Shown: in pieces, positions 1,290 to 35,242 of the stretch
Position numbering within the stretch: position 1 is the stretch's first letter
Layout of the letters: every line of letters begins with the position of its first letter
Source of the DNA: a virus
Taxonomy: Duplodnaviria; Heunggongvirae; Uroviricota; Caudoviricetes
Reading direction: 5' to 3' (one strand)
IMG/VR virus record: IMGVR_UViG_2565956725_000003
Span: 1 to 41,483 of that record
Length of the DNA stretch: 41,483 bases
The notes under the pieces: model-generated
Seen by the model: only the letters and a program-made list of their open reading frames with translations
Database searches by the model: none
Told to the model about the DNA's origin: nothing
Made by a program: the position numbers and the translations under genes

Positions 1290-1772
1290 CTATCTGGTCA
1301 GGGTGTCGTACTGTTTTTCGCAGACTCTTCCGGCTTCGGCTGCCCGGTCAGCATACTCTGCCAGTTGTCTATTTCTCTCGAGAGATTTGCTGAACACGTC
1401 GGCAAGCAAAACTCCGGTGTCTGCGGCTGACGACCCAGCGCCGACAATGGCGTTATAGTGCCTGAGCTGCTCACGGATGGCAACGAGCTGTTGCTGCAAC
1501 CGGCCAGCGCGAGCGGCAGCATCAAGAGCATCATTGCGCGCCTGGTCGATCCTCTGCTGCGCTTCACGTTCATTGATCGATTTCTCCTGTTCGTAGTGCT
1601 GACGAATTCTCTCATCTTCGGTTTTGCGGTCTTCTTTCGCCTGTGCATACCCAGCGTCGTACTGACGACTGCCGTGCACATTCCAGGCAACAACTCCTGA
1701 TATGACCAGAACAGCAAGCACCGCCATGATAATCAACTGTTTACGGTATGCTTTTACGAATGACCAGATCAT
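1290..1772 (-). CDS. i-spanin (Rz-like)
   Basis: 160 aa with N-terminal TM helix then Q/R/E-rich coiled coil; last gene of the lysis cassette, start overlaps the endolysin stop. Confidence 0.8.
1298..1534 (-). CDS. o-spanin (Rz1-like lipoprotein) embedded in Rz in the +1 frame
   Basis: Internal ATG-ATG start gives [13 protein letters not shown] (lipobox LAGC) followed by a Ser/Pro-rich mature peptide, entirely inside the Rz ORF. Confidence 0.65.
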   Translation of the reverse strand: MMLLMLPLALAGCSNSSLPSVSSSGTITPLSALGRQPQTPEFCLPTCSANLSREIDNWQSMLTGQPKPEESAKNSTTP

Positions 1773-2398
1773 ACAGCCAGCACCTTACTGGCAGTGACGT
1801 ACCGCGCGCGCCGGTCGTCGATGCCATTCCTGCCACCATTGATAATCAGAGTTACACGTGCAATATCGCCGGTATACTTCATGCAACCTTTGCTGGAGAA
1901 GAACCACGCCGCGCTACGAGCCGCGTATTCGTCCTGCGCCAACAGTTCAGGATTCTCCAGCAGGTCCACTTTCAGGCCGTTTCCGCAATCACGATAGTTA
2001 TTCAAACCGGTAATCTGGATAAGTCCGCGGCCACGGTAATTCCAGCCATCGCCGGGGGCATTGTTCCCCATGCGTTTGCTGTACACCAGATTGGCAATCG
2101 CTCGCTGGCGCTCGAGTGGCAATGGTGGTTCACCAGCATGGCGACCCAGTGCATTAGCCTGCCCCTGAGTGAGACGCCCAGCCCGAACGAAGTTAGCCAG
2201 TCCGCTGACACTGTAGTTGAAATTCTCCTGCAACCTGGTGAAGCCCCCAGACTCATGCCCGACTTGAGCAATAAACATTGCCTGATCTTCTGCTTTGCTG
2301 ATACCAAACTCTTTCATCGCAGAAGTTATATGCGAGAACCAGCGTGCGGCCAGCGCCTCGCTAATACCAGCAGCTCGCTGGAATTGTTTAATCTCCAT
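1769..2398 (-). CDS. endolysin, glycoside hydrolase family 19
   Basis: Start MEIKQFQ with RBS GAGGT; motifs VGHESGGF and [16 protein letters not shown] typical of GH19 lysozymes. The ORF-track start at 2629 is rejected because it runs through the holin gene. Confidence 0.8.
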
Positions 2399-3316: not shown

Positions 3317-6073
3317 TTAGCTACTTTCAAGCATTGCAAGACGTGATTCTATTTTTTCGATTCTTCTACGCAAATAAGCTGACTCAAGCCATAAACACTG
3401 GTCAGTACGGATACCCCACCTATTTCCAGCCTTGCAAACCAGAGTTCGCTCTTCTGTTTCGTATTCTTCTTCCATCTCAATTTCGACGCCATCCACAACT
3501 TTAGTGATCATCCTTACCGCCATCACTGGCGCGTATTTATCATCCCATTCATCGTAACAGAGAAGGCCAAATCTGGTTCCATCAATCCCATGCGCGAGGA
3601 AAGTGTCTCTCACTTGTTGTGCTATAACACCAAAATGCCAGCGGGCACCATCTCCCTTTTCCCTGACGGCATCAAGCCAGCGAAAAGCTACAATCCTGAT
3701 ATCTCCCCATGCATCCAGAATTGCATCACCTTCATAACCACGAGACATATACAAGCTGAGCTCACTTGTACTAATCGGTTCACTTTTTTCTCTACCATCT
3801 GATGTGTTTATCGAACCGTTCGCAGAATAAACCTGTGCCCATCTAAATGATGGTGCACCAAGAGATTTGCTGTTATCAATAATTGGTGAAAAATTACCTT
3901 TAATGGCAATATTTCCAGAGTCGCCGAATATATTAATAACTGCAGAGTCATCACCATGGTTTTTTACGCTTAAGTTTCTTGATGAAATATTTATATCTTT
4001 GTTATATCCACTAACATTAATCCATCTTTTACCATCAATGTGATACCCGTAAATATTTCCGTCTGATTGTTCGTCAGGTGACTCTCTAAGAACAATAGCA
4101 TCTGCTCCAGACGACCATTGTATTTTTGTATCTGTAGGCCTCCAGTTCTTTATAATGAACGAACCATCAGTAAACTCCGTTTTTATTTGTCTATTGTCTA
4201 CAAATGCGTCTCTTGGTTTAAACTCACTTGTGTTAACGCTGCTCTGAAGATCAGAAGCAAAAAATCTAAGATTTCCTGTATAACCCTGAGTCTCGGTCTG
4301 GTTATACGCAATCATAATTCCATTTTCAAACTCAGATGATGTTATTTTAACATCACGGCAATCACCAAAAATGCAATTTCCTTTATCAAATGTTGTTTGA
4401 GCTTTGAATTTATCAAACCTTAAATTACGAACAGGGAAACCATCAACCTCTAATGCAAAGGATGCAGGAAGGCCAAAGTATTCTGATGGCTTACCTGATG
4501 TATGATCAAGAGTAGTGGCTACTGTATTCTCAAAAACAGTCCCGCTAAAATTATTACCAATTGACGGAAACCTGATTACACTTATTGTACCTTGTATTTC
4601 AGGAGAAATACCAGATAGTGTGATGTTAGCTCCATCAAATGATGCATCTGAATACGTATATACTGATTCACTGCCAGCAATTTTAAACTGTTTAACTGAA
4701 GTTATTCTCATCGACTTTTTATGTTTAAATGTCACTGAGCTTTCAGTATTACTTACAAGATCAATCTGAGGGCTATTCCTTATCGCGATCCCTGACTGGA
4801 CATAAACGTTATTAAAGTGCGTTTTTTCAGGATTTCCCTTCATTGAAAGGCTCCCGTCATTTTCTGTCAGTAGTAGTCCTTTTACCCTCCAATAGCCGAC
4901 AATCTGTACGTTATCAATAACTGAATCACAGCTATCGTATACATGCAACCCTATATCCCAGTCATCACCCAATGAATAAGAATCAGGGTTATTGTATCCT
5001 TCAATACCATTTTTACTTACCATTATTCTCAGGTTGCGTAACTGTGATGCCCTGTTGATACTAACAGCTACGCTCATGGCTTTTGGTGTAGCAGGAGTAA
5101 CACCTACAGAATCTTCATTTGTAAACTCAGTGAACTTACAAGATATCCCTTCAACAATTTTAACTGGTCTTTCATTAGAGATGTTAAAAAAATATTTGTT
5201 TTTTTCTCCATCACCAGTAAATACAAGATGGGTTCCTTTACTCCAACTTTTTAATAATCTTTCAGGCGCTGGTCTATATGTATCCCAATAATCAATGCCA
5301 TCACCAATTAAAGACACTCCAGGAGGCACATCTATGTTCTTAGAAATCATCCATTTACCTGCAGGTATTCTAACGACACTTGCACCAGAATTTATCGCAT
5401 TAATTAACCATTCAGACGCATCAACTTCAAAATTTAATGCAGCATATCTTTGCTCAAACGGAACAAAATCAAGAGCGTTAACGTTATCCCGCATCTTATC
5501 CTGGAACGTTCGGTATACTGCTCCAGAACCATACTGAATAAACCAACCAAAACCACCAACAACTCCGGCGATTGCAGCATCAACATAATTGCGCATTGAT
5601 CGATTATTTACAGCATCCTGCTCAAGTGATGGATCTGCAAGGTTAGAAATTTTGTTTTGCTTTGCATCGTAATATTTTGCAAGCAAAGATGGTTTCATCA
5701 ATGCACGTCTGAACCATCCAAAACATTGCTGGATCAGCATCGTCAGATAGTCAAAGGCATCTTCATGCACCTCGGGGAAAAATTTTCCCTGATTACGAAG
5801 ATCAGTCTCCTGCACCACATCAAGCACACGATCTATCGTAATTCGCCATCCAGCAGCAAGCGGCGACGGAAGAACAACAGAACCGCCACTATAAGTGCCC
5901 GCCCCTGTTACCGTATAACCGGTATCCAGAACCAATTCTGTTACGTTCCCGTTCAGGTCAGACACCTGAACAACCAGGTCGGATTTTTTGAAAATACGGA
6001 AGGTATACGGAAATGATGTCGTAGCTCCGTTACCTGTGTATTCGTTGTGGTCAACTTCGGTTGAGACCGTCAT
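3317..6073 (-). CDS. tailspike/tail fibre with C-terminal intramolecular chaperone (peptidase S74-like)
   Basis: 918 aa; N-terminus resembles the T7 gp17-type adaptor domain; AT-rich central part; C-terminal roughly 150 aa resembles self-cleaving chaperone domains of endosialidase-type fibres; RBS GGAG. Confidence 0.8.
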   Translation of the reverse strand: MTVSTEVDHNEYTGNGATTSFPYTFRIFKKSDLVVQVSDLNGNVTELVLDTGYTVTGAGTYSGGSVVLPSPLAAGWRITIDRVLDVVQETDLRNQGKFFPEVHEDAFDYLTMLIQQCFGWFRRALMKPSLLAKYYDAKQNKISNLADPSLEQDAVNNRSMRNYVDAAIAGVVGGFGWFIQYGSGAVYRTFQDKMRDNVNALDFVPFEQRYAALNFEVDASEWLINAINSGASVVRIPAGKWMISKNIDVPPGVSLIGDGIDYWDTYRPAPERLLKSWSKGTHLVFTGDGEKNKYFFNISNERPVKIVEGISCKFTEFTNEDSVGVTPATPKAMSVAVSINRASQLRNLRIMVSKNGIEGYNNPDSYSLGDDWDIGLHVYDSCDSVIDNVQIVGYWRVKGLLLTENDGSLSMKGNPEKTHFNNVYVQSGIAIRNSPQIDLVSNTESSVTFKHKKSMRITSVKQFKIAGSESVYTYSDASFDGANITLSGISPEIQGTISVIRFPSIGNNFSGTVFENTVATTLDHTSGKPSEYFGLPASFALEVDGFPVRNLRFDKFKAQTTFDKGNCIFGDCRDVKITSSEFENGIMIAYNQTETQGYTGNLRFFASDLQSSVNTSEFKPRDAFVDNRQIKTEFTDGSFIIKNWRPTDTKIQWSSGADAIVLRESPDEQSDGNIYGYHIDGKRWINVSGYNKDINISSRNLSVKNHGDDSAVINIFGDSGNIAIKGNFSPIIDNSKSLGAPSFRWAQVYSANGSINTSDGREKSEPISTSELSLYMSRGYEGDAILDAWGDIRIVAFRWLDAVREKGDGARWHFGVIAQQVRDTFLAHGIDGTRFGLLCYDEWDDKYAPVMAVRMITKVVDGVEIEMEEEYETEERTLVCKAGNRWGIRTDQCLWLESAYLRRRIEKIESRLAMLESS

Positions 6074-6176: not shown

Positions 6177-6193
6177 ATTACCTTTCGGGTAAT
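6177..6193. promoter_or_regulatory. operator-like 17-bp palindrome ATTACC-N5-GGTAAT (copy 1)
   Basis: ATTACCTTTCGGGTAAT, perfect 6+6 inverted repeat, in the divergent region between the tailspike start and the SOS-box ORF. Confidence 0.6.
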
Positions 6194-6229: not shown

Positions 6230-6249
6230 TACTGTATAAATATACAGTT
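6230..6249 (+). promoter_or_regulatory. LexA (SOS) box inside a sigma70-like promoter
   Basis: TACTGTATAAATATACAGTT matches the CTGT-N8-ACAG consensus; sits between TTGATA (6226-6231) and TATTAC (6249-6254), 20 nt upstream of the ORF at 6269. Confidence 0.8.
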
Positions 6250-6268: not shown

Positions 6269-6526
6269 ATGCAGCAGTATCACTATCCACTGGAAGACGG
6301 ATTTACCGAAAGGATTCACACGCCGGGAGGCGTCAGGTCACTGGTGGAGGGATCGCACTTGATGAAATTACTCCGGGATCTCGATAAGGATGGATTTAAT
6401 GTCGATGGCCCACTTGCCGAACTGACTGCACTGATTAACTACGTCACCAGCTCACAGATGTCTATGCAGGATCTGCAAACACATCTCGACTATTGTGCCG
6501 AACAATTACGAAAGCAAACCAGATAA
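6269..6526 (+). CDS. small SOS-controlled protein, paralogue of the Bro protein C-terminal domain (candidate antirepressor)
   Basis: 85 aa, RBS GGAG; aligns with the last ~65 aa of the 6840..7532 product (shared IH-P-GV, LM-LL, DG-V-G, AELT, QTH-Y). Confidence 0.7.
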   Translation: MQQYHYPLEDGFTERIHTPGGVRSLVEGSHLMKLLRDLDKDGFNVDGPLAELTALINYVTSSQMSMQDLQTHLDYCAEQLRKQTR

Positions 6527-6556
6527 GGTTTGCAATTACCAAGTGGAGTGCTTATA

Positions 6557-6573
6557 TTTACCTTTGCGGTAAA
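6557..6573. promoter_or_regulatory. operator-like palindrome (copy 2) nested in a larger inverted repeat
   Basis: TTTACCTTTGCGGTAAA, flanked symmetrically by GGAGTGC (6545-6551) and GCACTCC (6582-6588). Confidence 0.55.
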
Positions 6574-6665
6574 TTTACATCGCACTCCTCTTGTGCCATA
6601 GTAATCGGGCACTGGCAAAATCCAGTGCCGGGATTGGTCTCCCGGATTACTACAGAGGCACATAT

Positions 6666-6686
6666 GCCGCATAAGCGGTTTTTTTA
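6666..6686 (+). terminator. weak terminator-like hairpin plus T-tract
   Basis: CCGC-ATAA-GCGG followed by TTTTTTT; short stem. Confidence 0.3.
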
Positions 6687-6839
6687 TGTGTAAAGCGCAC
6701 CTATTCTATGGTGGGCTGTGTGGGGGCACCGAAAGGTGCGCCGGGTTCCTTTGTAGCCGGTAAGACCAACTCTGCACAGTTCACCACCATCTGATTGGTC
6801 TCAGCGGTGGTGATTAACCTAACTACAAAGGTGATCGCC

Positions 6840-7532
6840 ATGAATACCAAACCTTCCATCTTTTCCTTTGAGTCATCCTGCCAGATCCGTATGTTCATGA
6901 TTGACGGAGAACCTTGGTTTGTCACCAAAGATGTGTGCAATGCTTTGAATATTGATGTTACACAAGCGAGAAAACTTGATAAAAAAGGCTGGAACAAAAA
7001 GGGGCTGTATTCAATACAGACCCCTGGTGGAATACAAGAACTATCCATCGTTTCAGAATCAGGTCTCTACATCCTTATTCTGCGTTGCAAAGAGGCAATG
7101 ACAGAGGGAACGAGAGCATTCAGATTTCTTGAATGGGTTACAGGTGAGGTTCTTCCTCAGATCCGCCGCACCGGAAGTTACATTAAAAACTCGCTCCCGC
7201 AGGAAGAACGCATAAAGATGGTTGCCGACCAGGTAGCCAACGCCACGGCGTCAGCAGTAATGCAGGCGATGAAGATAGAGAACAAAACCTACAGTGCCCC
7301 GCTGAAGCCCGGCTACCGCAGCCTGATTCACTCGCCGTCTGGTGTTCTCGGCCTGACGGAGAACTCACTGCTGATGAATCTGCTGAACCAGTTACAGGAA
7401 GACGGGCACGACGTATCGGGCGCGGCGGCGGAACTGACCACCATGTTCTGCTACATCGTCGGTGTGAGTAAATGCCTGCGTGATATCCAGACCCACGCGG
7501 AATACATCAACGACAAGGCAGGGGTCTTCTGA
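6840..7532 (+). CDS. Bro-N domain protein (antirepressor-like)
   Basis: N-terminal Bro-N signature (FSFESSCQIRMFMIDGEPWFVTKDVCNALNI ... GLYILILRC ... FLEWVTGEVLPQIRRTGSY); start at ATG 6840 with RBS AAAGGTGA. Confidence 0.85.
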   Translation: MNTKPSIFSFESSCQIRMFMIDGEPWFVTKDVCNALNIDVTQARKLDKKGWNKKGLYSIQTPGGIQELSIVSESGLYILILRCKEAMTEGTRAFRFLEWVTGEVLPQIRRTGSYIKNSLPQEERIKMVADQVANATASAVMQAMKIENKTYSAPLKPGYRSLIHSPSGVLGLTENSLLMNLLNQLQEDGHDVSGAAAELTTMFCYIVGVSKCLRDIQTHAEYINDKAGVF

Positions 7533-7597: not shown

Positions 7598-7614
7598 ATT
7601 ACCCCAAAGGTAAG
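7598..7614. promoter_or_regulatory. operator-like palindrome (copy 3)
   Basis: ATTACCCCAAAGGTAAG upstream of the two-gene cassette; further GTAAC-N13-GTTACC half-sites at 7626-7650. Confidence 0.55.
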
Positions 7615-7730: not shown

Positions 7731-7949
7731 ATGTTTAAATTTGATATGCAACTCAACCAAAACTATGCCTCTTTTTACCATCCAGAAACTGGTAAAGCTG
7801 TTTTCGTTGACTCTTTCGATAATGAAGAATTTGATATCAGAATTGGGACCCTACGCCAAAGTAAGCATGTTGCTACTGTACGTGCATCCAATGATGATGA
7901 ATTAAATCAAAAAATAAGTGAGGCGACCTCCCGTTATCTATGTCTATAA
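7731..7949 (+). CDS. hypothetical protein, first gene of an AT-rich two-gene cassette
   Basis: 72 aa; strong RBS GGGAGGA; no recognisable domain. Confidence 0.6.
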   Translation: MFKFDMQLNQNYASFYHPETGKAVFVDSFDNEEFDIRIGTLRQSKHVATVRASNDDELNQKISEATSRYLCL

Positions 7950-8317
7950 CAGAACAACAACTCATTGATCTTGAGGATGAGATTAACGAGATCTTGCAAG
8001 AAGATGCGGCAAGAATTCACTTTTCATTTCACGCAGCATATGAACGCCTGAACGACGAGAGGAACAAACCGCCAATTACTCTTGCTGAGCTTGAAGATGT
8101 GTTTAAATCGTTTATATCTGCACATCTGCAGACTGTTTTGGATTTTGCTGAAGGTACAACTTTCACCATAAAGTGCAACAAAAGCGCCCTTCATTTTCCT
8201 TGCGCCATTGTACACGAAAGAGAGTTTGGGAAAACGTGGGTTATCCAAAACGTCATTACAGCCATGAGGAAAGTGGGATTCAAGTCTAAAGATTCTATTA
8301 TCCTCGAAGTTAATTAA
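7940..8317 (+). CDS. hypothetical acidic protein, second gene of the cassette
   Basis: 125 aa; start overlaps the upstream stop by 10 nt; followed by a terminator; no recognisable domain. Confidence 0.6.
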   Translation: MSITEQQLIDLEDEINEILQEDAARIHFSFHAAYERLNDERNKPPITLAELEDVFKSFISAHLQTVLDFAEGTTFTIKCNKSALHFPCAIVHEREFGKTWVIQNVITAMRKVGFKSKDSIILEVN

Positions 8318-8339
8318 GCCCGCACTGAGGGCTTTTTTA
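8317..8339 (+). terminator. rho-independent terminator
   Basis: AGCCC-GCACTGA-GGGCT followed by TTTTTT directly after the 125-aa gene stop. Confidence 0.7.
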
Positions 8340-8410
8340 TGGACGAAACAAAAGTCAGTGCTACACTCATTGACGCCACATTGAGGTGGCTTATAGATGG
8401 AAATTTCACA

Positions 8411-8572
8411 ATGAAAAAAGCATTTGCTGCACTGTTCGTTTTGTTGTCTCTGGTAGCTTCAACTCAGGCCTTTGCCGGTCGTTGTCAGCACGACAGCGAC
8501 ACTGCTGCTGACGGCTCCCGCTGCGGTGGGCGTTCTGCGGATTCCCGCCCGGGTGGCGGTGGCATTCGTTAA
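8411..8572 (+). CDS. small secreted Gly-rich two-cysteine peptide
   Basis: 53 aa from internal ATG: signal peptide MKKAFAALFVLLSLVASTQAFA then a 31-aa mature peptide with two Cys. ATG at 8339 rejected (abuts terminator, no RBS). Confidence 0.45.
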   Translation: MKKAFAALFVLLSLVASTQAFAGRCQHDSDTAADGSRCGGRSADSRPGGGGIR

Positions 8573-8594
8573 AAACAAGGCCGCGAAAGCGGCC
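8571..8594 (-). terminator. terminator for the minus-strand late operon, possibly bidirectional
   Basis: GGCCGC-GAAA-GCGGCC hairpin; on the minus strand it is followed by TTGTTTTT. Confidence 0.6.
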
Positions 8595-8603
8595 TGTGAC
8601 ATG

Positions 8604-8984
8604 TCACGCAACGCAATTATTACCGCGCCATGTAACATTTTTAATAATCTTATCAGCACCAAACTCAACGTAAACAGAGCAACTGAAATGGAGTGTATAA
8701 CCGCCATCAGTTGTTGCGTATGTGTTTGAATATATAGTATTACCAATTAGATTAGACGTAGTATTATACGTTGTGGTTTGTGGTACGTTATAACTACCAG
8801 AGCTTGAGTAAACATACACTCTGTTTCCATCTGGAGATGTAAGCTCTCCCTGAGGATACCCCCACTGCTGAACCATTGCGTCTATACTCTGCCCGCGCCA
8901 CGTAAGCATATTTCTTTCAAACTGTGCAGCTGACTGGCATCCAACGAGAAGCATAAATCCAAAAATCAAAAATACTTTTCTCAT
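8604..8984 (-). CDS. prophage lipoprotein (moron, possible superinfection exclusion)
   Basis: 126 aa from ATG 8984 with RBS AGGGG; signal peptide MRKVFLIFGFMLLVGC (lipobox LVGC); Thr/Asn/Tyr-rich mature part. Confidence 0.6.
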   Translation of the reverse strand: MRKVFLIFGFMLLVGCQSAAQFERNMLTWRGQSIDAMVQQWGYPQGELTSPDGNRVYVYSSSGSYNVPQTTTYNTTSNLIGNTIYSNTYATTDGGYTLHFSCSVYVEFGADKIIKNVTWRGNNCVA

Positions 8985-9069
8985 AATTACCCCTATCATG
9001 GAAAAACAGCACCAATCCACAAATTAACTAGTTATTTTATTATTCTTCCGAACAATACAATTCCGAATA

Positions 9070-19476: not shown

Positions 19477-20084
19477 CAGGACAACCTCGCAATGGTAAAC
19501 TCATCAACCGGTGGCTGTGGTTCCTGTGATTCATTCTGGCTATGCGAGCCAGCACTAAGAATCACGCGATTGTACATATTGAGGGCAAACGTACCGAGGT
19601 CTGCATTCCCAGTCAGCGCCATGTTAATAGCTGCCGCAAGACGCCAGGCCAACGCCTCCATAAAAATGGCATCAAACATGTTCACATCTGTAACGCGAGA
19701 GACATACTTGAGCCATGCCTGCGGCTGGTCTGTGTAGATCAACTTTCCTGTTCCGTTGGTGTCTGCACCAACTTCGTACTGAACGCGCATTGCTGCTGTT
19801 GGATTGCGTACACCAGGAAGCATAATTTCAGTAATGCGCAGACAATCGGACGGGTACTGATACGCATATTCCCAGTCAGGCGGTGGATTGCTCGTATCTG
19901 CAAGCGCCACGCGTTTGGTAGCAAAGTTCCAGTCAAAATCAGAAAGCACAGCATCACGGCAGGCCTCAAAGTGCAGCGAACATTCCCCCGCTTCCTTGCT
20001 GGCTTCCGTCAGGCTGTTAATGCTGCGGCTATTGCCAATATTGGACAGCGCACGATTACAGATCTCTACTACAGAGGCCATCAC
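19476..20084 (-). CDS. tail tubular protein A-like (adaptor/gatekeeper)
   Basis: 202 aa; N-terminal pattern resembles T7 gp11 as recalled. Confidence 0.55.
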   Translation of the reverse strand: MMASVVEICNRALSNIGNSRSINSLTEASKEAGECSLHFEACRDAVLSDFDWNFATKRVALADTSNPPPDWEYAYQYPSDCLRITEIMLPGVRNPTAAMRVQYEVGADTNGTGKLIYTDQPQAWLKYVSRVTDVNMFDAIFMEALAWRLAAAINMALTGNADLGTFALNMYNRVILSAGSHSQNESQEPQPPVDEFTIARLS

Positions 20085-20410
20085 TCACCCCCGTTACCGT
20101 AGAGGGTTTCAGCCGCTGATTTTTCTACATCACCGGAAACAGGAGCGATTGCCATATCAGTGATCTGCAGATCGGCGCTGCGATTAACACCATCGTCAGT
20201 TTCTCTGGCAGACAGGCCTCGAATAACAGCCTTTGCAGTTATCATCACTTCTGTTCCGACGCCCTGAGGTTGCGCCTTCAGCTTATTCAATGTGTCGTTA
20301 TTAAGAGTGATGCACAGCCCCCACGGGTATTCATCGCGAGTTCTGGTTTCTCCGCTCTCATCCTGGTAGCTGTCAGTGCCGGTTTTGAGGTTTACGAGTT
20401 CCATATACAC
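20081..20410 (-). CDS. virion structural protein, hypothetical
   Basis: 109 aa in the structural operon; start preceded by an intercistronic hairpin. Confidence 0.5.
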   Translation of the reverse strand: MYMELVNLKTGTDSYQDESGETRTRDEYPWGLCITLNNDTLNKLKAQPQGVGTEVMITAKAVIRGLSARETDDGVNRSADLQITDMAIAPVSGDVEKSAAETLYGNGGE

Positions 20411-25609: not shown

Positions 25610-25686
25610 GTGGCATTAGCTCAGTTGGACAGAGCAACCGCCTTCTAAGCGGTTGGTCGCAGGTTCGAATCCTGCATGCCACGCCA
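25610..25686 (+). tRNA. tRNA-Arg (anticodon UCU), phage-encoded argU-like
   Basis: Hand-folded cloverleaf with 7-bp acceptor stem, D and T arms, anticodon loop CTTCTAA, discriminator G and encoded CCA; core resembles argU. Confidence 0.9.
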
Positions 25687-31038: not shown

Positions 31039-31694
31039 TGGTTTCCTCCTTTGCGAAGCTGTTCCGCACAATCCAGCAGGGCGTCCGTCGCTTCTTTCAC
31101 CGTAACGATGTCGCCATCGTCCAGCCCGACAACCGTCGCGTTCTTAACGAACACCGAGCAAAGGTCATTAAACGCCTGCGCCCGCACTTCAGCCAGGCAT
31201 TTGCGAAACTCGGAAACGTACTGTTCGACGCTCATTCCCCAGCTAAGTGGACATTCATTGAATGTTTCGCCTTCGTGCTCTTCATCAGGTAGCTCTTTGG
31301 TAAAGAACTCACGTTCAATGGCGTGGAGTGTGTCAGCAAAACGACGTAAGTTACTCAAACCTGTCGTAATGGAGAATTCAGGAGCATCACATCCGACGCC
31401 CATCTGCTGATAAACGGCGGTTTTGAAGGCCTTCAGCCCCGCATTCTCCGCCGCCAACGCCGAAAACTTCTCGTGTGCCAACTTAACAGCCGCATCAGCC
31501 TGCTTAATTGACTCAATCGCTTTCTGCTGGTCTTCGGCCAGCGCATTAGCACGCACCAGTTGCACTTCCAGTTGCGTTGCCAAATCGCTGATCAGCTTTG
31601 CCACACTGCGCATATCAACGGCACCACATTCTGCTTTCAGTTCCGAAGCCATCTCATGCCCGGCGGCAACTAACCCTTTGATATTACTTTCCAT
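31035..31694 (-). CDS. coiled-coil early protein (Ea22-like?)
   Basis: 219 aa, RBS GAGGG, coiled-coil N-terminal half. Confidence 0.45.
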   Translation of the reverse strand: MESNIKGLVAAGHEMASELKAECGAVDMRSVAKLISDLATQLEVQLVRANALAEDQQKAIESIKQADAAVKLAHEKFSALAAENAGLKAFKTAVYQQMGVGCDAPEFSITTGLSNLRRFADTLHAIEREFFTKELPDEEHEGETFNECPLSWGMSVEQYVSEFRKCLAEVRAQAFNDLCSVFVKNATVVGLDDGDIVTVKEATDALLDCAEQLRKGGNQ

Positions 31695-31755
31695 CTTTAC
31701 CCTCGCTTATCCACATAACTTATTGATTACATTGATAACTAAAAAGATCGTCGAT

Positions 31756-32100
31756 TCAGAACTCTTCGATGTTCCAGCCACCACCTGTTTTCTTTGGTTT
31801 AACCGTTACCCCGATGATTCGGAACGGATACTGATCTGCGGCGACTTTGGTTTTCACCCTGGCGTCGTCGGTCCAGAAACCTTTCACTTCGTGCAGTTCC
31901 ATCTCTCCGGTGGCGAGCATCACAGCGAAATCTGGCGTATAGAACGTGTTGTCAGCTAACCGCAGCTTGATACCCTCGAATCGATACCAGGCGATTTCCC
32001 CTGCACGTTTACGCAGCTCAAGGTGCTGGCAATACGCAGATTCAGTTTTGTTCATCTGGCCTGTTTTGAGTCGACCAAGAGCCTGTATCTGTTTTCTCAT
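31756..32100 (-). CDS. putative PD-(D/E)XK nuclease-fold protein
   Basis: 114 aa; TPDF...ELHEVKG resembles a PD-x(n)-E-x-K motif; start codon and RBS overlap palindrome copy 6. Confidence 0.4.
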   Translation of the reverse strand: MRKQIQALGRLKTGQMNKTESAYCQHLELRKRAGEIAWYRFEGIKLRLADNTFYTPDFAVMLATGEMELHEVKGFWTDDARVKTKVAADQYPFRIIGVTVKPKKTGGGWNIEEF

Positions 32101-32102
32101 GA

Positions 32103-32119
32103 TTTACCTCTGAGGTAAT
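32103..32119. promoter_or_regulatory. operator-like palindrome (copy 6)
   Basis: TTTACCTCTGAGGTAAT overlapping the RBS/start of the 31756..32100 gene. Confidence 0.5.
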
Positions 32120-32164
32120 TAAAAACCACATAAGACATGAAATCAATAGAGTTTATAATATTTT

Positions 32165-32181
32165 GTTACCTAACAGGTAAT
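32165..32181. promoter_or_regulatory. operator-like palindrome (copy 7)
   Basis: GTTACCTAACAGGTAAT, 62 bp from copy 6, in the gap downstream of the P-like gene. Confidence 0.55.
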
Positions 32182-32217
32182 TATCGAGGCGTAAAAAAAT
32201 GCGCTATCGCGCTGGTA

Positions 32218-32994
32218 TTACTTGATAAATCCTGCCGCCTTTCCCCGCCTGTATTCCTCCATCAGCCACTGCGCCGGTGTTATTCCCCCAAGGGTGGCGG
32301 CGTTAGGCATGCACCCGAAACTTCGCCCTGGTGGATGGTAAACGTCTCTCCCTGTGTCCGGAGGTGTACTCATGGGCTCTGGCTTTGCCTGTATGCTGAT
32401 CACCGGATCGGGTATCTGCTGTCCGGAAGCCACCTTTTTCGCCCAATCATCGAGCAGCCTGCGCGCGTGTTTCTCAACCTCACTCTCGCTAAGCTGGCGC
32501 TGATACATTGCACGACGGGTATCACATACGACCCAGTACATAACCGGATGCCGCCACGGGAATCTTTCGGGACCACCAGGATATAAACTTTTTTCCTTGC
32601 TGTACCGGTGAAACTCCGCCATCACATCGTCAATGGTGACGCCAAGAACCATCTTGCTGTCTTTGCACCACTTGATGAATTGCCCTGGCGACGGCCAGAA
32701 CGGAGATTCACTGGCGCGGGCGTGGCGCATACCAGCGTTAACCTGTTCCATTGTAGTGATCCCATTCTCCAGAAACGCAAGCATCCATTGCTTACGGAAT
32801 TCATTAAGTTTGTTCTGCTCCCTTATGGTCGAAACGCTTGCAGGAAATGCAGCCTGTAACTGGACAAATAGTTCATTGAAAATTCTAGCAACCTGCTCCT
32901 TTTTGCCATTGCTGTCACGCCGCTCTTCATGCACAGCAACACCATGCTCACGTAAGCGATCGTACTCATTGAGAAGTTCTGGAGTTGATTTCAT
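32218..32994 (-). CDS. replication protein P-like (helicase loader)
   Basis: 258 aa; block FPASVSTIREQNKLNEFRKQWMLAFLENGITTMEQVNAGMRHAR...SPGQF aligns closely with lambda P as recalled. Confidence 0.8.
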   Translation of the reverse strand: MKSTPELLNEYDRLREHGVAVHEERRDSNGKKEQVARIFNELFVQLQAAFPASVSTIREQNKLNEFRKQWMLAFLENGITTMEQVNAGMRHARASESPFWPSPGQFIKWCKDSKMVLGVTIDDVMAEFHRYSKEKSLYPGGPERFPWRHPVMYWVVCDTRRAMYQRQLSESEVEKHARRLLDDWAKKVASGQQIPDPVISIQAKPEPMSTPPDTGRDVYHPPGRSFGCMPNAATLGGITPAQWLMEEYRRGKAAGFIK

Positions 32995-34137: not shown

Positions 34138-34368
34138 TCATGAGTAGAAGAAGTATGCCAGTTCTGCTTTTGAGCGCAGCCATTGTCTTGTTTTACAGGC
34201 TTTAAAAAGCCCATTCATCAATACTTTACCTGGCATTTTGCGCTTACCTGTTAAGTGAGTCTGGATATAGTGACTCGTCGTTCCGGCTTCCTGTGCGAAG
34301 GCTTCACGCTCATCCGGAGTAAGTGCAAGCCAGTGCTTTTTGAAATCGAAATGTCCGTTATCGCTCAT
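34138..34368 (-). CDS. Cro-like / YdaS-family HTH regulator
   Basis: 76 aa, divergent from the repressor gene across the operator-bearing intergenic region; HTH segment TSHYIQTHLTGKRKMPGKVL. Confidence 0.6.
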   Translation of the reverse strand: MSDNGHFDFKKHWLALTPDEREAFAQEAGTTSHYIQTHLTGKRKMPGKVLMNGLFKACKTRQWLRSKAELAYFFYS

Positions 34369-34434
34369 AGCTATTGCCTGATATTTATTTCAGATAATAA
34401 ATATTCACCCATAAGGTAACAAAAATCAAGGATA

Positions 34435-34451
34435 GTTACCTGTGGGGTGCA
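34435..34451. promoter_or_regulatory. operator-like site, imperfect (OR2-like)
   Basis: GTTACCTGTGGGGTGCA; left half conserved, right half GGTGC; tandem with copy 8. Confidence 0.45.
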
Positions 34452-34468
34452 TTTACCTGTTGGGTAAT
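34452..34468. promoter_or_regulatory. operator-like palindrome (copy 8, OR-like)
   Basis: TTTACCTGTTGGGTAAT in the 154-bp region between the divergent cro-like and repressor genes; GGTAAC half-site at 34415-34420. Confidence 0.65.
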
Positions 34469-34522
34469 ATTGCTTTAAATTGAATCATCTACTGATTCAT
34501 ATATGAGGCGATTTTCCAGAAA

Positions 34523-35107
34523 ATGAAAAGTATCCAGGACGTCCGCAGGCAAAATCTCAACGACTTGATCGACCGTGAATTCAATGGTGTTCAGACGCGG
34601 ATGGCAGAAAAACTTGGAACTCAGGCAAATCTGGTAAACCGCTGGGCTCTTGGCAAGAAGGTTATCGGCGACCAGGTTGCACGAAAAATTGAAGCTGCCG
34701 CCAATAAACCCCGTAACTGGCTTGATATTGATCGTTCGCTTTCTCAGGAGGGTTTTCAGCCTGTCGGCCCGAGCGATATAGGTCAGCTGGCGGCTCACAA
34801 CCTGGAACGCTGGATGAGCGAAAGCCGCGACCTTTCAACACAGGGAAAACTTCACCGCGCATCCGGCGTCGCCCAGGTGACAATCAGCCGCCTGTTAAAC
34901 AATGAGGTCAGCGTTTCCATTTCCACCCTGGAGAATGTTGCATCCGCATTCGGGCGTCACGGATATGAACTACTAATTCACCCGCACGACCCTGCGACTA
35001 TCAACTATGACCGCTCGCGCTACGCATTGTTACCCGAAGCCGAGAAAGCAAAGATCGAAAGTTACATTGAATTTGTCATCAACCAGAACGAAAAAAACAA
35101 ACAATAA
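34523..35107 (+). CDS. prophage repressor, dual HTH, no autocleavage domain
   Basis: 194 aa; two HTH-like segments (residues about 10-60 and 95-150); no S24 peptidase motifs; divergent from the cro-like gene; followed by a strong terminator. Confidence 0.7.
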   Translation: MKSIQDVRRQNLNDLIDREFNGVQTRMAEKLGTQANLVNRWALGKKVIGDQVARKIEAAANKPRNWLDIDRSLSQEGFQPVGPSDIGQLAAHNLERWMSESRDLSTQGKLHRASGVAQVTISRLLNNEVSVSISTLENVASAFGRHGYELLIHPHDPATINYDRSRYALLPEAEKAKIESYIEFVINQNEKNKQ

Positions 35108-35129
35108 AATCATATTTTTCAGTAAGTAA

Positions 35130-35152
35130 GCCGCCTTCTGGCGGCTTTTTTA
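35130..35152 (+). terminator. rho-independent terminator after the repressor gene
   Basis: GCCGCC-TTCT-GGCGGC followed by TTTTTTATT. Confidence 0.8.
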
Positions 35153-35163
35153 TTGCCTGTTCG

Positions 35164-35180
35164 ATTACCTGATAGGTAAT
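35164..35180. promoter_or_regulatory. operator-like palindrome (copy 9, OL-like)
   Basis: ATTACCTGATAGGTAAT, perfect, 19 bp upstream of TTGACA at 35199-35204. Confidence 0.65.
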
Positions 35181-35198
35181 TTTTTTAACTCATATCTA

Positions 35199-35227
35199 TT
35201 GACATCAAACCAAATACGCATAATTAT
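35199..35227 (+). promoter_or_regulatory. candidate early promoter (pL-like)
   Basis: TTGACA, 16-17 bp spacer, TAATTA/AATTAT; the -10 overlaps palindrome copy 10. Confidence 0.45.
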
Positions 35228-35242
35228 TACCTCAACGGTAAC
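35226..35242. promoter_or_regulatory. operator-like palindrome (copy 10)
   Basis: ATTACCTCAACGGTAAC overlapping the candidate -10; extra GGTAAC half-site at 35250-35255. Confidence 0.6.

Follow-up and report, generated by a model that had tools for sequence, protein, structure and literature searches.

The stretch of DNA analyzed here (the window, 41,483 nucleotides, IMG/VR record IMGVR_UViG_2565956725_000003) is a complete Uetakevirus prophage of Escherichia coli that resembles phages phiV10, epsilon15 and SPC32H. It encodes two proteins with a common domain: a free 85-amino acid (aa) antirepressor, Ant (6269-6526, plus strand), which lies behind a LexA (SOS) box, and a 230-aa protein (6840-7532, plus strand) in which an Ant-like domain is fused to a Bro-N domain and whose gene is preceded by RNAs of the isrK and C4 families. 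The reading that we favor, with a probability of about 0.6, is that the prophage carries two antirepressors aimed at one repressor, Rep, the first triggered by the SOS response and the second controlled by an antisense RNA, as in the immI locus of phage P1. The observations behind this reading are the homology of the two proteins, the membership of the intervening RNAs in known families, the complementarity between C4 and its targets together with its covariation, the mosaicism of the domains, and the joint presence of Ant and Rep across phages. Neither component is new by itself: ant is the mini-antirepressor gene already known from the epsilon15/SPC32H-like phages, and the Bro-N protein, as an antirepressor, and its RNA switch each belong to a known type. 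The apparently undescribed feature is their combination within one prophage, in which a structurally solved Rep-binding domain occurs in a free form under LexA as well as joined to an exchangeable, RNA-gated chassis.

Homology between the free protein and the Bro-N protein C-terminus

Residues 2-75 of the small protein align with residues 149-222 of the Bro-N protein without a gap, with 31 of the 74 positions identical (42%) and 58% positives (BLASTP with composition correction, E=6e-16), and by tblastn the match reaches residues 2-79 of the former against nucleotides 7284-7517 of the latter. In a HMMER search of a database of 177,635 sequences, both proteins matched the same chain of a solved complex, 5d50_E, named "Anti-repressor protein": the small protein over residues 2-84 (chain residues 3-85, 88% identity, E=4.1e-47) and the Bro-N protein over its C-terminal residues 149-225 (chain residues 3-79, E=8.9e-14). 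The PDB entries 5D4Z and 5D50 belong to the Ant/Rep system of phage SPC32H, and 5d50_E is SPC32H Ant, solved in complex with its repressor. The two proteins also fall in the same family of phage orthologues, PHROG 450, with E-values of 9e-48 and 3.9e-37, respectively. In an exhaustive search, a profile that combines both subtypes of the domain retrieved no more than 66 cluster representatives from 1.84 billion proteins; the match is thus specific and does not reflect a generic helical likeness. When the C-terminal domain was modeled on its own with AF2 (pLDDT 76), the top Foldseek match was another chain of the same complex, 5d50_G (probability 1.00, TM 0.59/0.68, rmsd 3.0 Å across 71 columns), with the runner-up about 80-fold weaker by E-value. 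Thirteen positions are invariant across the free (type 1) and the fused (type 2) forms of the domain, namely, Y4, P19, G21, L25, S29, D41, G42, V45, A50, E51, Y58, T71 and H72.

A preliminary description of this DNA had already reported the alignment of the 85-aa product with the end of the Bro-N protein, and the pairwise and profile comparisons bear it out at high significance, as they do all five motifs then listed (IH.P.GV, LM.LL, DG..V.G, AELT and QTH..Y), each of which is present in both proteins; the length of the match, put at about 65 residues, is in fact about 74-78. To judge from these similarities, that description was also justified in regarding the two proteins as paralogous and the shared domain as their effector part. 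Its statement that the domain belongs to no named family holds for Pfam and NCBIfam, in both of which the search found no model of it, but not for the structural record, in which the domain is characterized as SPC32H Ant (PDB 5D50). A match of the domain to DUF724 was discarded as spurious (17.6 bits, below the cutoff of 38.4).

The architectures in which the domain occurs were surveyed through the exhaustive profile search; word-indexed homologue searches with such short domains returned mostly near-identical short proteins. Among the proteins found, an 84-aa metagenomic sequence (P0140) is a natural hybrid with an N-terminal half of type 1 (MPQQYHHPLEDGFTERIHTPAGVRSLVERSHL) and a C-terminal half of type 2 (...TTMLCYIAGVSKCLREIETHAQYVMSQAKGF), which suggests recombination between the two paralogues. 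Three candidates for a stand-alone type 2 domain, P0122, P0131 and P0133 (95 aa), were rejected; P0131 was the one examined. Its tblastn similarity runs on upstream of the called start (fusion residues 102-230), and we read it as the remnant of a fusion gene that has lost its 5' end. The gene lies at 3908-4288 of Raoultella/Klebsiella contigs, on the border of a prophage, with host genes (transthyretin-like, KdgT) next to it.

The SOS-controlled antirepressor and its presumed target repressor

The small gene is 87.95% identical to the ant gene of SPC32H by tblastn and adjoins the tailspike gene, in the position of the annotated SPC32H ant; the tail-fibre gene of the window (3317-6073, minus strand) is divergent from it. 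Upstream, 22 nucleotides 5' of the ant start codon, lies the LexA box CTGTATAAATATACAG (6232-6247, plus strand), the extended form of which, TACTGTATAAATATACAGTT (6230-6249), agrees with the LexA consensus TACTGTATATATATACAGTA at 18 of 20 positions. It is the only CTGT-N8-ACAG site with an AT-rich spacer in the window, and SPC32H and Klebsiella phage Kp4865-1 have equivalent boxes upstream of ant, so the SOS control proposed in the preliminary description stands. The overlap of the ant promoter with the LexA box is taken from a published statement. No CTGT-N8-ACAG LexA site is found between 6527 and 6840, ahead of the Bro-N gene.

The presumed target of both Ant domains is the two-domain helix-turn-helix (HTH) repressor Rep (34523-35107, plus strand), which matches 5d50_A ("Repressor") over residues 1-190 with E=4.1e-42, contains the Pfam domain HTH_3 and is 41.8% identical to SPC32H Rep; a cro-like gene (34138-34368) is divergent from it. 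The Ant/Rep lytic switch of SPC32H was reportedly worked out by Kim and Ryu (J Virol, 2013) and by Kim et al. (PNAS, 2016). According to PMC7380047, which cites Kim & Ryu 2013, SPC32H ant is under LexA control and the phage repressor is not cleaved; in PMC9638917, the SPC32H Ant tetramer is described as binding two Rep dimers and splitting the Rep tetramer. The Rep of the window, likewise, is probably inactivated by the binding of an antirepressor and not by self-cleavage. Judging from its 88% identity to the tested SPC32H Ant, the small protein is the inducing antirepressor of the phage and not an accessory fragment.

An isrK/C4 RNA cassette ahead of the Bro-N gene

A spacer of 313 base pairs (bp) separates the ant stop (6526) from the ATG of the Bro-N gene (6840), the reading frame of which is open from 6795, ends at 7532 and has the Shine-Dalgarno sequence AAAGGTG. 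All of the following elements of this spacer, which the preliminary description had overlooked, are on the plus strand. A promoter-like sequence, TTTACA-17-CATAGT with an upstream TG (6574-6602), which is conserved as TTGTGCCATAGT in all 8 cassettes examined, puts the predicted start of transcription near 6609, at what is position 1 of the isrK model. The isrK-family small RNA (sRNA) itself (6609-6685; Rfam RF01394, 74.7 bits against a gathering score of 50) ends in a terminator (6666-6685) that consists of a terminator-like segment at 6666-6679 followed by a run of T. It is followed by a C4 antisense RNA (6704-6791; RF01695, 78.6 bits, gathering score 45) that covers the model completely, positions 1-87 of 87.

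The C4 RNA presents two recognition sequences, each with one counterpart in isrK and another in the leader of the Bro-N gene. The loop sequence a', CCTTTGTAG (6748-6756), is complementary to a2 and a1: the pairing with the target a2, CTACAAAGG (6823-6831), which overlaps the Shine-Dalgarno sequence, is exact over 9 nucleotides, and that with the isrK mimic a1, CTACAGAGG (6650-6658), includes one G-U pair. The single-stranded b' sequence, AGACCAA (6763-6769), has exact 7-nucleotide complements at 6634 and 6795, that is, the mimic b1 in the isrK loop (TTGGTCT, 6634-6640) and the target b2 in the Bro-N leader (TTGGTCT, 6795-6801). The separate Rfam family for the upstream pair, c4-a1b1 (RF03163), is matched at 6596-6648 with 39.9 bits, under its gathering score of 46.7. 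Within C4 lies an upstream open reading frame (ORF) of 28 codons (6708-6794) that stops 45 nucleotides before the Bro-N ATG and in the same frame; it is Ash-like, with a weak match to Pfam Phage_ASH (E=1.7e-4, below the cutoff) and the annotation "ash family protein" in phage ZX5. Apart from this short ORF, there is no gene at the Bro-N locus that could be likened to the translationally coupled icd of P1.

The cassette is also present in phiV10, ZX5, TL-2011b, HEMP4 and Klebsiella phage Kp4865-1, and the C4 pairing covaries: five combinations of a' and b' occur among 8 loci, each with compensatory changes in both copies of the target. The window and H10407 have a' CCTTTGTAG with b' AGACCAA; phiV10, ZX5 and TL-2011b have a' CCTTTTAG with b' ACGCCAA; Phi05_1387B combines a' CCTTTGTAG with b' ACGCCAA, and HEMP4 combines a' CCACTTAG with the same b'; finally, Kp4865-1 has a' CCTTTGTAG with b' GTCTCAA. 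From this complementarity and covariation, we infer that C4 blocks translation of the fusion.

The stretch that separates ant from the isrK promoter is a hot spot of insertion. In TL-2011b (34153-35241), it contains an insert of about 1.1 kb without an assigned function, and in the enterotoxigenic strain ETEC H10407/SEC470 (1949-2677), a 729-bp ORF on the opposite strand, likewise without an assigned function.

Public records do not reflect this arrangement. Nearly all E. coli records name the free Ant "hypothetical protein", and in the phage records examined, isrK and C4 are unannotated, with only a terminator and the short "ash family" ORF marked; the annotation can now be corrected, such that the "hypothetical protein" becomes the free Ant and the isrK and C4 RNAs are added to the phage records.

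A dispersed palindrome as a candidate operator

The window contains 13 copies of the palindrome TTACC-N5-GGTAA, with at most one mismatch, where 0.73 would be expected (positions 2949, 6178, 6558, 7599, 25273, 28420, 28438, 32104, 32166, 34405, 34453, 35165 and 35227). The copies are mostly intergenic: two, TCACCCATAAGGTAA (34405) and TTACCTGTTGGGTAA (34453), lie in the spacer between rep and the cro-like gene (34369-34522), two downstream of rep (35165 and 35227), and others before several operons. The region between rep and cro has 3 copies in SPC32H and 2, along with a looser one, in Kp4865-1, so the palindrome is retained in SPC32H and in the Klebsiella relative though their Reps are only 42-45% identical to that of the window. 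On sequence grounds, the palindrome is a candidate operator of Rep and/or Cro, dispersed over the genome. The operators of the P1 repressor C1 are similarly dispersed over the P1 genome.

Three copies flank the genes of interest here, each of them a candidate Rep operator. The first, TTACCTTTCGGGTAA (6178-6192), lies between ant and the divergent tail-fibre gene and has counterparts upstream of ant in SPC32H, PAS61, ZX5 and Kp4865-1. The second, TTACCTTTGCGGTAA (6558-6572), abuts the -35 element of the isrK promoter, with its center at about -44, and is found in the same place in phiV10, ZX5, TL-2011b, HEMP4 and Kp4865-1. The third, TTACCCCAAAGGTAA (7599-7613), follows the Bro-N gene and precedes the ORFs at 7731-8317. 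The second copy is embedded in a stable hairpin (6541-6592; dG -28.1 kcal/mol, z -3.7) just after the ant stop, which could be either the ant terminator or an extended operator. In phiV10, the arms of this hairpin form a near-perfect inverted repeat of 18 bp.

Distribution of the free and fused domains

The 1.6-kb region that contains both genes is 91-98% identical to the corresponding region of Escherichia phages EC.W1-9, TL-2011b, ZX5 and phiV10, and of 5426 complete E. coli genomes, 542 have a match to it. Ant was found in 35 phage records and Rep in 36, all of them shared except for BP9, which has Rep only. All 35 Ant-positive records contain the free form of 85-86 aa and only a subset contains the fusion; in this phage collection, fusions are confined to genomes that also have Rep and free Ant. 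Because the free Ant is universal and the fused domain is carried on at least five different N-terminal domains (Bro-N, AntA, P22_AR_N, Rha and ORF6N), it is the Bro-N protein that carries a copy of Ant, the reverse of the earlier suggestion that the small ORF is a stand-alone copy of the Bro-N protein's domain.

The fusion of the window consists of a Bro-N domain (6885-7157; PF02498, residues 16-106, E=1.7e-13, 51.4 bits against a cutoff of 25.6), a helical linker modeled with low confidence, and the type 2 Ant domain (7284-7517); as a whole, it matches PHROG 130, "anti-repressor Ant", with E=4e-51. Identities across phages, all from tblastn and relative to the window sequences, differ markedly between these parts. 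In the E. coli members, Rep is 98-100% identical, the free Ant 97.6-100% and the fused C-terminal domain 99-100%, with a Bro-N domain of only 58-68%, which implies a recombination joint between the two domains of the fusion. The respective values for Rep, the free Ant and the fused C-terminal domain are 78%, 85.5% and 78% in Enterobacter phage Tyrion, and 45%, 58-63% and 52% in the Klebsiella phages, where the Bro-N domain of Kp4865-1 is 46% identical. The Salmonella phages SPC32H and epsilon15, with a Rep of 42% and a free Ant of 84-88%, have no fusion.

Two phages carry a third gene with the domain, each with an RNA of another family next to it. In TL-2011b (31231-32244), a P22_AR_N domain is joined to a type 2 domain that is 90% identical to that of the window, and a sar RNA (44.8 bits in Rfam, gathering score 43) lies on the opposite strand directly 5' of the start codon; neither sar nor P22_AR_N has a copy in the window. 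In HEMP4 (1600-2387, minus strand, 228 aa), an AntA domain is joined to a type 2 domain (~90%) in a gene that adjoins the integrase gene, with a match to the sRNA-Xcc1 family immediately upstream (62.9 bits, gathering score 53). Given these comparisons, the fused C-terminal domain appears to be the part that is matched to the resident Rep, and the N-terminal domain, together with the RNA control, appears to be an exchangeable chassis.

The fusion has been assayed in ZX5, a phage that shares with the window 99.5% of Rep, 100% of the free Ant and 99% of the C-terminal domain, and in which ORF4 is the orthologous fusion. When ORF4 was overexpressed, the prophage titre fell about 1000-fold, from 1e9 to 1e6, and the rep transcript by 75% (PMC9782041). 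That paper presents ORF4 as "the" antirepressor, and the free Ant, which is annotated as hypothetical, LexA, SPC32H and isrK/C4 are not mentioned in it. Our literature search found no paper that ties the C-terminus of a Bro-N antirepressor to SPC32H Ant.

A proposed model of the dual control of Rep

In the scheme that we propose, DNA damage would lead to the cleavage of LexA and hence to the production of Ant from its LexA-boxed promoter, and Ant tetramers would then bind Rep and split the DNA-bound Rep tetramer, as shown for the SPC32H orthologue and as we suppose to be the case here. The second antirepressor would be governed by a cassette that comprises, in this order, the candidate Rep operator, the promoter, isrK with b1 and a1, the terminator, C4, and the b2/a2 targets over the Bro-N ribosome-binding site. 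In the lysogen, C4 would pair with the Bro-N leader over this site, such that the fusion would remain untranslated. The fusion would presumably be made under any of several conditions: once C4 is absent or outcompeted, for example, early in infection; upon entry of a superinfecting phage with a different C4 specificity, an anti-immunity effect like that of P1 versus P7; or when C4 is titrated by an isrK-type RNA. The C-terminal domain of the fusion would then bind Rep the way Ant does.

Several points weigh against this scheme. Binding of Rep by the fused domain is something that we infer from homology, and the 13 invariant residues could mirror the fold or the tetramer core and not the interface with Rep. 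The Foldseek E-value of the C-terminal domain model against 5d50_G is only 0.027, and with the full-length AF2 model, of mediocre quality (pLDDT 65), Foldseek found nothing significant for the C-terminal domain and did not recover 5D50. Neither PAS61 nor any of the Salmonella members has the fusion, and the Bro-N gene of phiV10 (19551-20230) is frameshifted within the Ant-like domain, where it is annotated as p23 (585 bp) and p22 (90 bp), so that the phiV10 fusion is probably inactive; the absence in the former phages and the frameshift in the latter imply that the fusion is dispensable to the lineage. Strict covariation of Ant with Rep fails for the free Ant, which is 88% identical between E. 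coli and Salmonella phages with Reps of 42% identity, and since the free Ant does not track Rep, the simple argument that the domain is matched to Rep is weakened. The ZX5 assay was an overexpression of a GST fusion in which the domains were not separated (PMC9782041). The account of the SPC32H mechanism comes from secondary citations, and the other facts on SPC32H come from PDB names and GenBank annotation.

Alternative explanations

The alternative that fares best, although we consider it rather doubtful, retains both antirepressors and makes a two-step cascade, one of the relationships raised in the preliminary description, their main role: SOS induction yields the free Ant, Rep is lost or C4 titrated, and the fusion is unlocked, either through loss of Rep from the operator at the isrK promoter or through ant transcripts that read into isrK. 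The fusion would then be a second-wave antirepressor that makes induction irreversible. Such a link is consistent with the position of the candidate operator, which abuts the -35 element of the isrK promoter and is kept in the Klebsiella phages, but an operator centered at about -44 suits activation as well as repression. There is no canonical terminator between the ant stop (6526) and isrK, and ant mRNA may accordingly carry the b1/a1 mimics; against this, the stable hairpin at 6541-6592, followed by CUCUUGU, could end the ant transcripts. In Gifsy-1, the antirepressor encoded downstream of isrK is translated once IsrK is provided in trans, and induction requires IsrK (PMC4825925), whereas the free Ant alone suffices for induction in SPC32H, epsilon15 and PAS61. 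Moreover, the diversification of C4 among phages with identical Reps fits inter-phage competition better than an internal cascade.

It is improbable, in our estimate, that the fused Ant-like domain only oligomerizes and that the N-terminal domains, Bro-N, AntA, P22_AR_N and Rha, act on something other than Rep, for instance DNA, a host factor or, in a cross-talk of the Gifsy/Fels kind, the repressor of a second resident prophage. Bro-N and KilA-N-like domains do have a likeness to DNA-binding folds (in Foldseek, the full-length model weakly matches Ski/Dachshund, the APSES protein Mbp1 and CpGV Orf22 with its N-terminal half), the invariant residues of the Ant domain are largely structural, and Salmonella has trans-acting antirepressors directed against other prophages (PMC7380047). 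The distribution of the fusion, however, points back to Rep: phages with the same Rep keep the C-terminal domain nearly unchanged (99-100%) but swap the N-terminal domain, the identity of the C-terminal domain drops along with that of Rep (78%/78% in Enterobacter and 52%/45% in Klebsiella), and the fusion is restricted to genomes with Rep and free Ant in the phage collection. The ZX5 fusion, furthermore, cuts the rep transcript and the lysogeny of its own phage.

The preliminary description had suggested a decoy or dominant-negative relationship, in which the paralogous domains form mixed oligomers and one damps the other. Ant is indeed a tetramer (PMC9638917), both domains have the conserved core of 13 invariant positions, and the P0140 hybrid indicates that halves of type 1 and type 2 are structurally compatible. 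Mixed tetramers, nevertheless, are not the default expectation at ~40% identity, and under separate control circuits, co-expression of the two genes is not assured. With the free Ant 88% identical to a proven inducer and the overexpressed ZX5 fusion favoring lysis and not lysogeny, which drops about 1000-fold, both proteins act in favor of lysis wherever they have been assayed, and we hold this explanation to be unsupported and very improbable.

Finally, there is practically no probability that the Bro-N C-terminus is unrelated to Ant and resembles it only by chance or through low-complexity helices: short helical segments in both proteins and the Foldseek E-value of 0.027 would fit this idea, but it is refuted by BLASTP (6e-16), HMMER (8.9e-14), PHROG 450 (3.9e-37) and the specificity of the profile.

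Comparison with known systems

The dual-antirepressor reading combines features of several known switches. The SPC32H Ant/Rep system provides the orthologue of the small ORF, of equal length, 88% identical, located beside the tailspike gene and behind a LexA box, as well as a homologous Rep with the same two-domain layout and TTACC-N5-GGTAA palindromes in the rep-cro region. It differs in its more divergent Rep (42%) and in having a single Ant, without a Bro-N fusion, isrK or C4; relative to SPC32H, the window adds a second Ant domain, in fused form and behind an RNA switch.

The immI loci of P1 and P7 consist of the c4 antisense RNA, icd and ant1/2, and the C4 variants are the determinants of heteroimmunity. 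In common with the window, these loci have a C4-family RNA 5' of an antirepressor gene and on the same strand, two pairs of target sites that flank it, the downstream pair over a ribosome-binding site, and compensatory specificity variants; the candidate operator of the main repressor at the cassette promoter is comparable to Op51 of P1. In contrast to P1 and P7, C4 here covers the Shine-Dalgarno sequence of the antirepressor gene itself, no icd-like coupled gene is present, and the antirepressor is a Bro-N protein with a SPC32H-Ant-like domain, encoded by a podovirus with a repressor of another class.

The isrK-orf45-anrP locus of Gifsy-1 shares with the window an isrK-family sRNA with its own promoter, followed by a C4-like RNA (STnc1160 in Gifsy-1) and an antirepressor gene. 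There, IsrK acts in trans to allow the antirepressor gene further downstream to be translated, and it favors induction (Hershko-Shalev et al. 2016, PMC4825925). The isrK terminator of Gifsy-1 is leaky and the C4-like RNA is processed; the terminator in the window is a predicted one. In Gifsy-1, translation is coupled via orf45, whereas in the window, the upstream ORF is only 28 codons long and stops 45 nucleotides short of the ATG, and unlike in Gifsy-1, the cassette lies beside a paralogue of its effector domain that is under SOS control.

A further parallel is ORF4 of ZX5 (Li et al. 2022, PMC9782041), the orthologous Bro-N fusion with the same Rep, free Ant and C-terminal domain, which differs in a Bro-N domain that is 68% identical and in its C4 specificity. 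The immI locus of P22 (arc-sar-ant) is similar in that translation of the antirepressor is checked by an antisense RNA, and it is linked to the present system through the sister phage TL-2011b, with its P22_AR_N domain, sar and type 2 domain; neither sar nor P22_AR_N occurs in the window. Tum of phage 186 and the Gifsy antirepressors are also repressed by LexA and act on a non-cleavable repressor (PMC7380047); they are not among the matches of Ant in Pfam, PHROGs or PDB.

Implications

Beyond the single prophage, a broader and still tentative possibility is that the Ant domain of ~80 aa is, in Uetakevirus, a portable Rep-specific module that occurs both free under LexA and on unrelated, RNA-switched antirepressor chassis. 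If so, Bro-N with isrK/C4, P22_AR_N with sar, and AntA with sRNA-Xcc1 would be alternative pairs of chassis and switch, and one non-cleavable repressor would integrate up to three independent inputs. Fast-diversifying C4 specificities would let phages with identical Reps break each other's immunity. A general rule for two-domain antirepressors would then be that the C-terminus confers repressor specificity and that the N-terminus, together with the RNA, is the regulatory chassis.

Few annotations in temperate phages are as common, or as poorly understood, as antirepressors with N-terminal Bro-N, AntA, Rha, P22_AR_N or ORF6N domains, the C-terminal halves of which are mostly unassigned. One such half is now linked by sequence to the 5D50 complex and can be regarded as a candidate repressor-binding part, open to direct testing. 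The arrangement bears on the wiring of induction, superinfection immunity and prophage cross-talk in E. coli.

Other features of the prophage

Downstream of the Bro-N gene lies a cargo block (7731-9020) without Pfam matches. It begins with two overlapping ORFs of 72 and 125 aa (7731-8317), which belong to PHROGs 14630 and 14518, respectively, and have no assigned function, and which are followed by a terminator at 8316-8334. The block further encodes a 77-aa Gly-rich protein with a signal peptide (PHROG 3117/14503), a membrane-associated moron, and, on the minus strand, a lipoprotein-like ORF of 138 aa (PHROG 3716). Elsewhere in the prophage, a gene for tRNA-Arg with the anticodon TCT (25610-25686) is kept in ZX5, PAS61, HEMP4 and TL-2011b.

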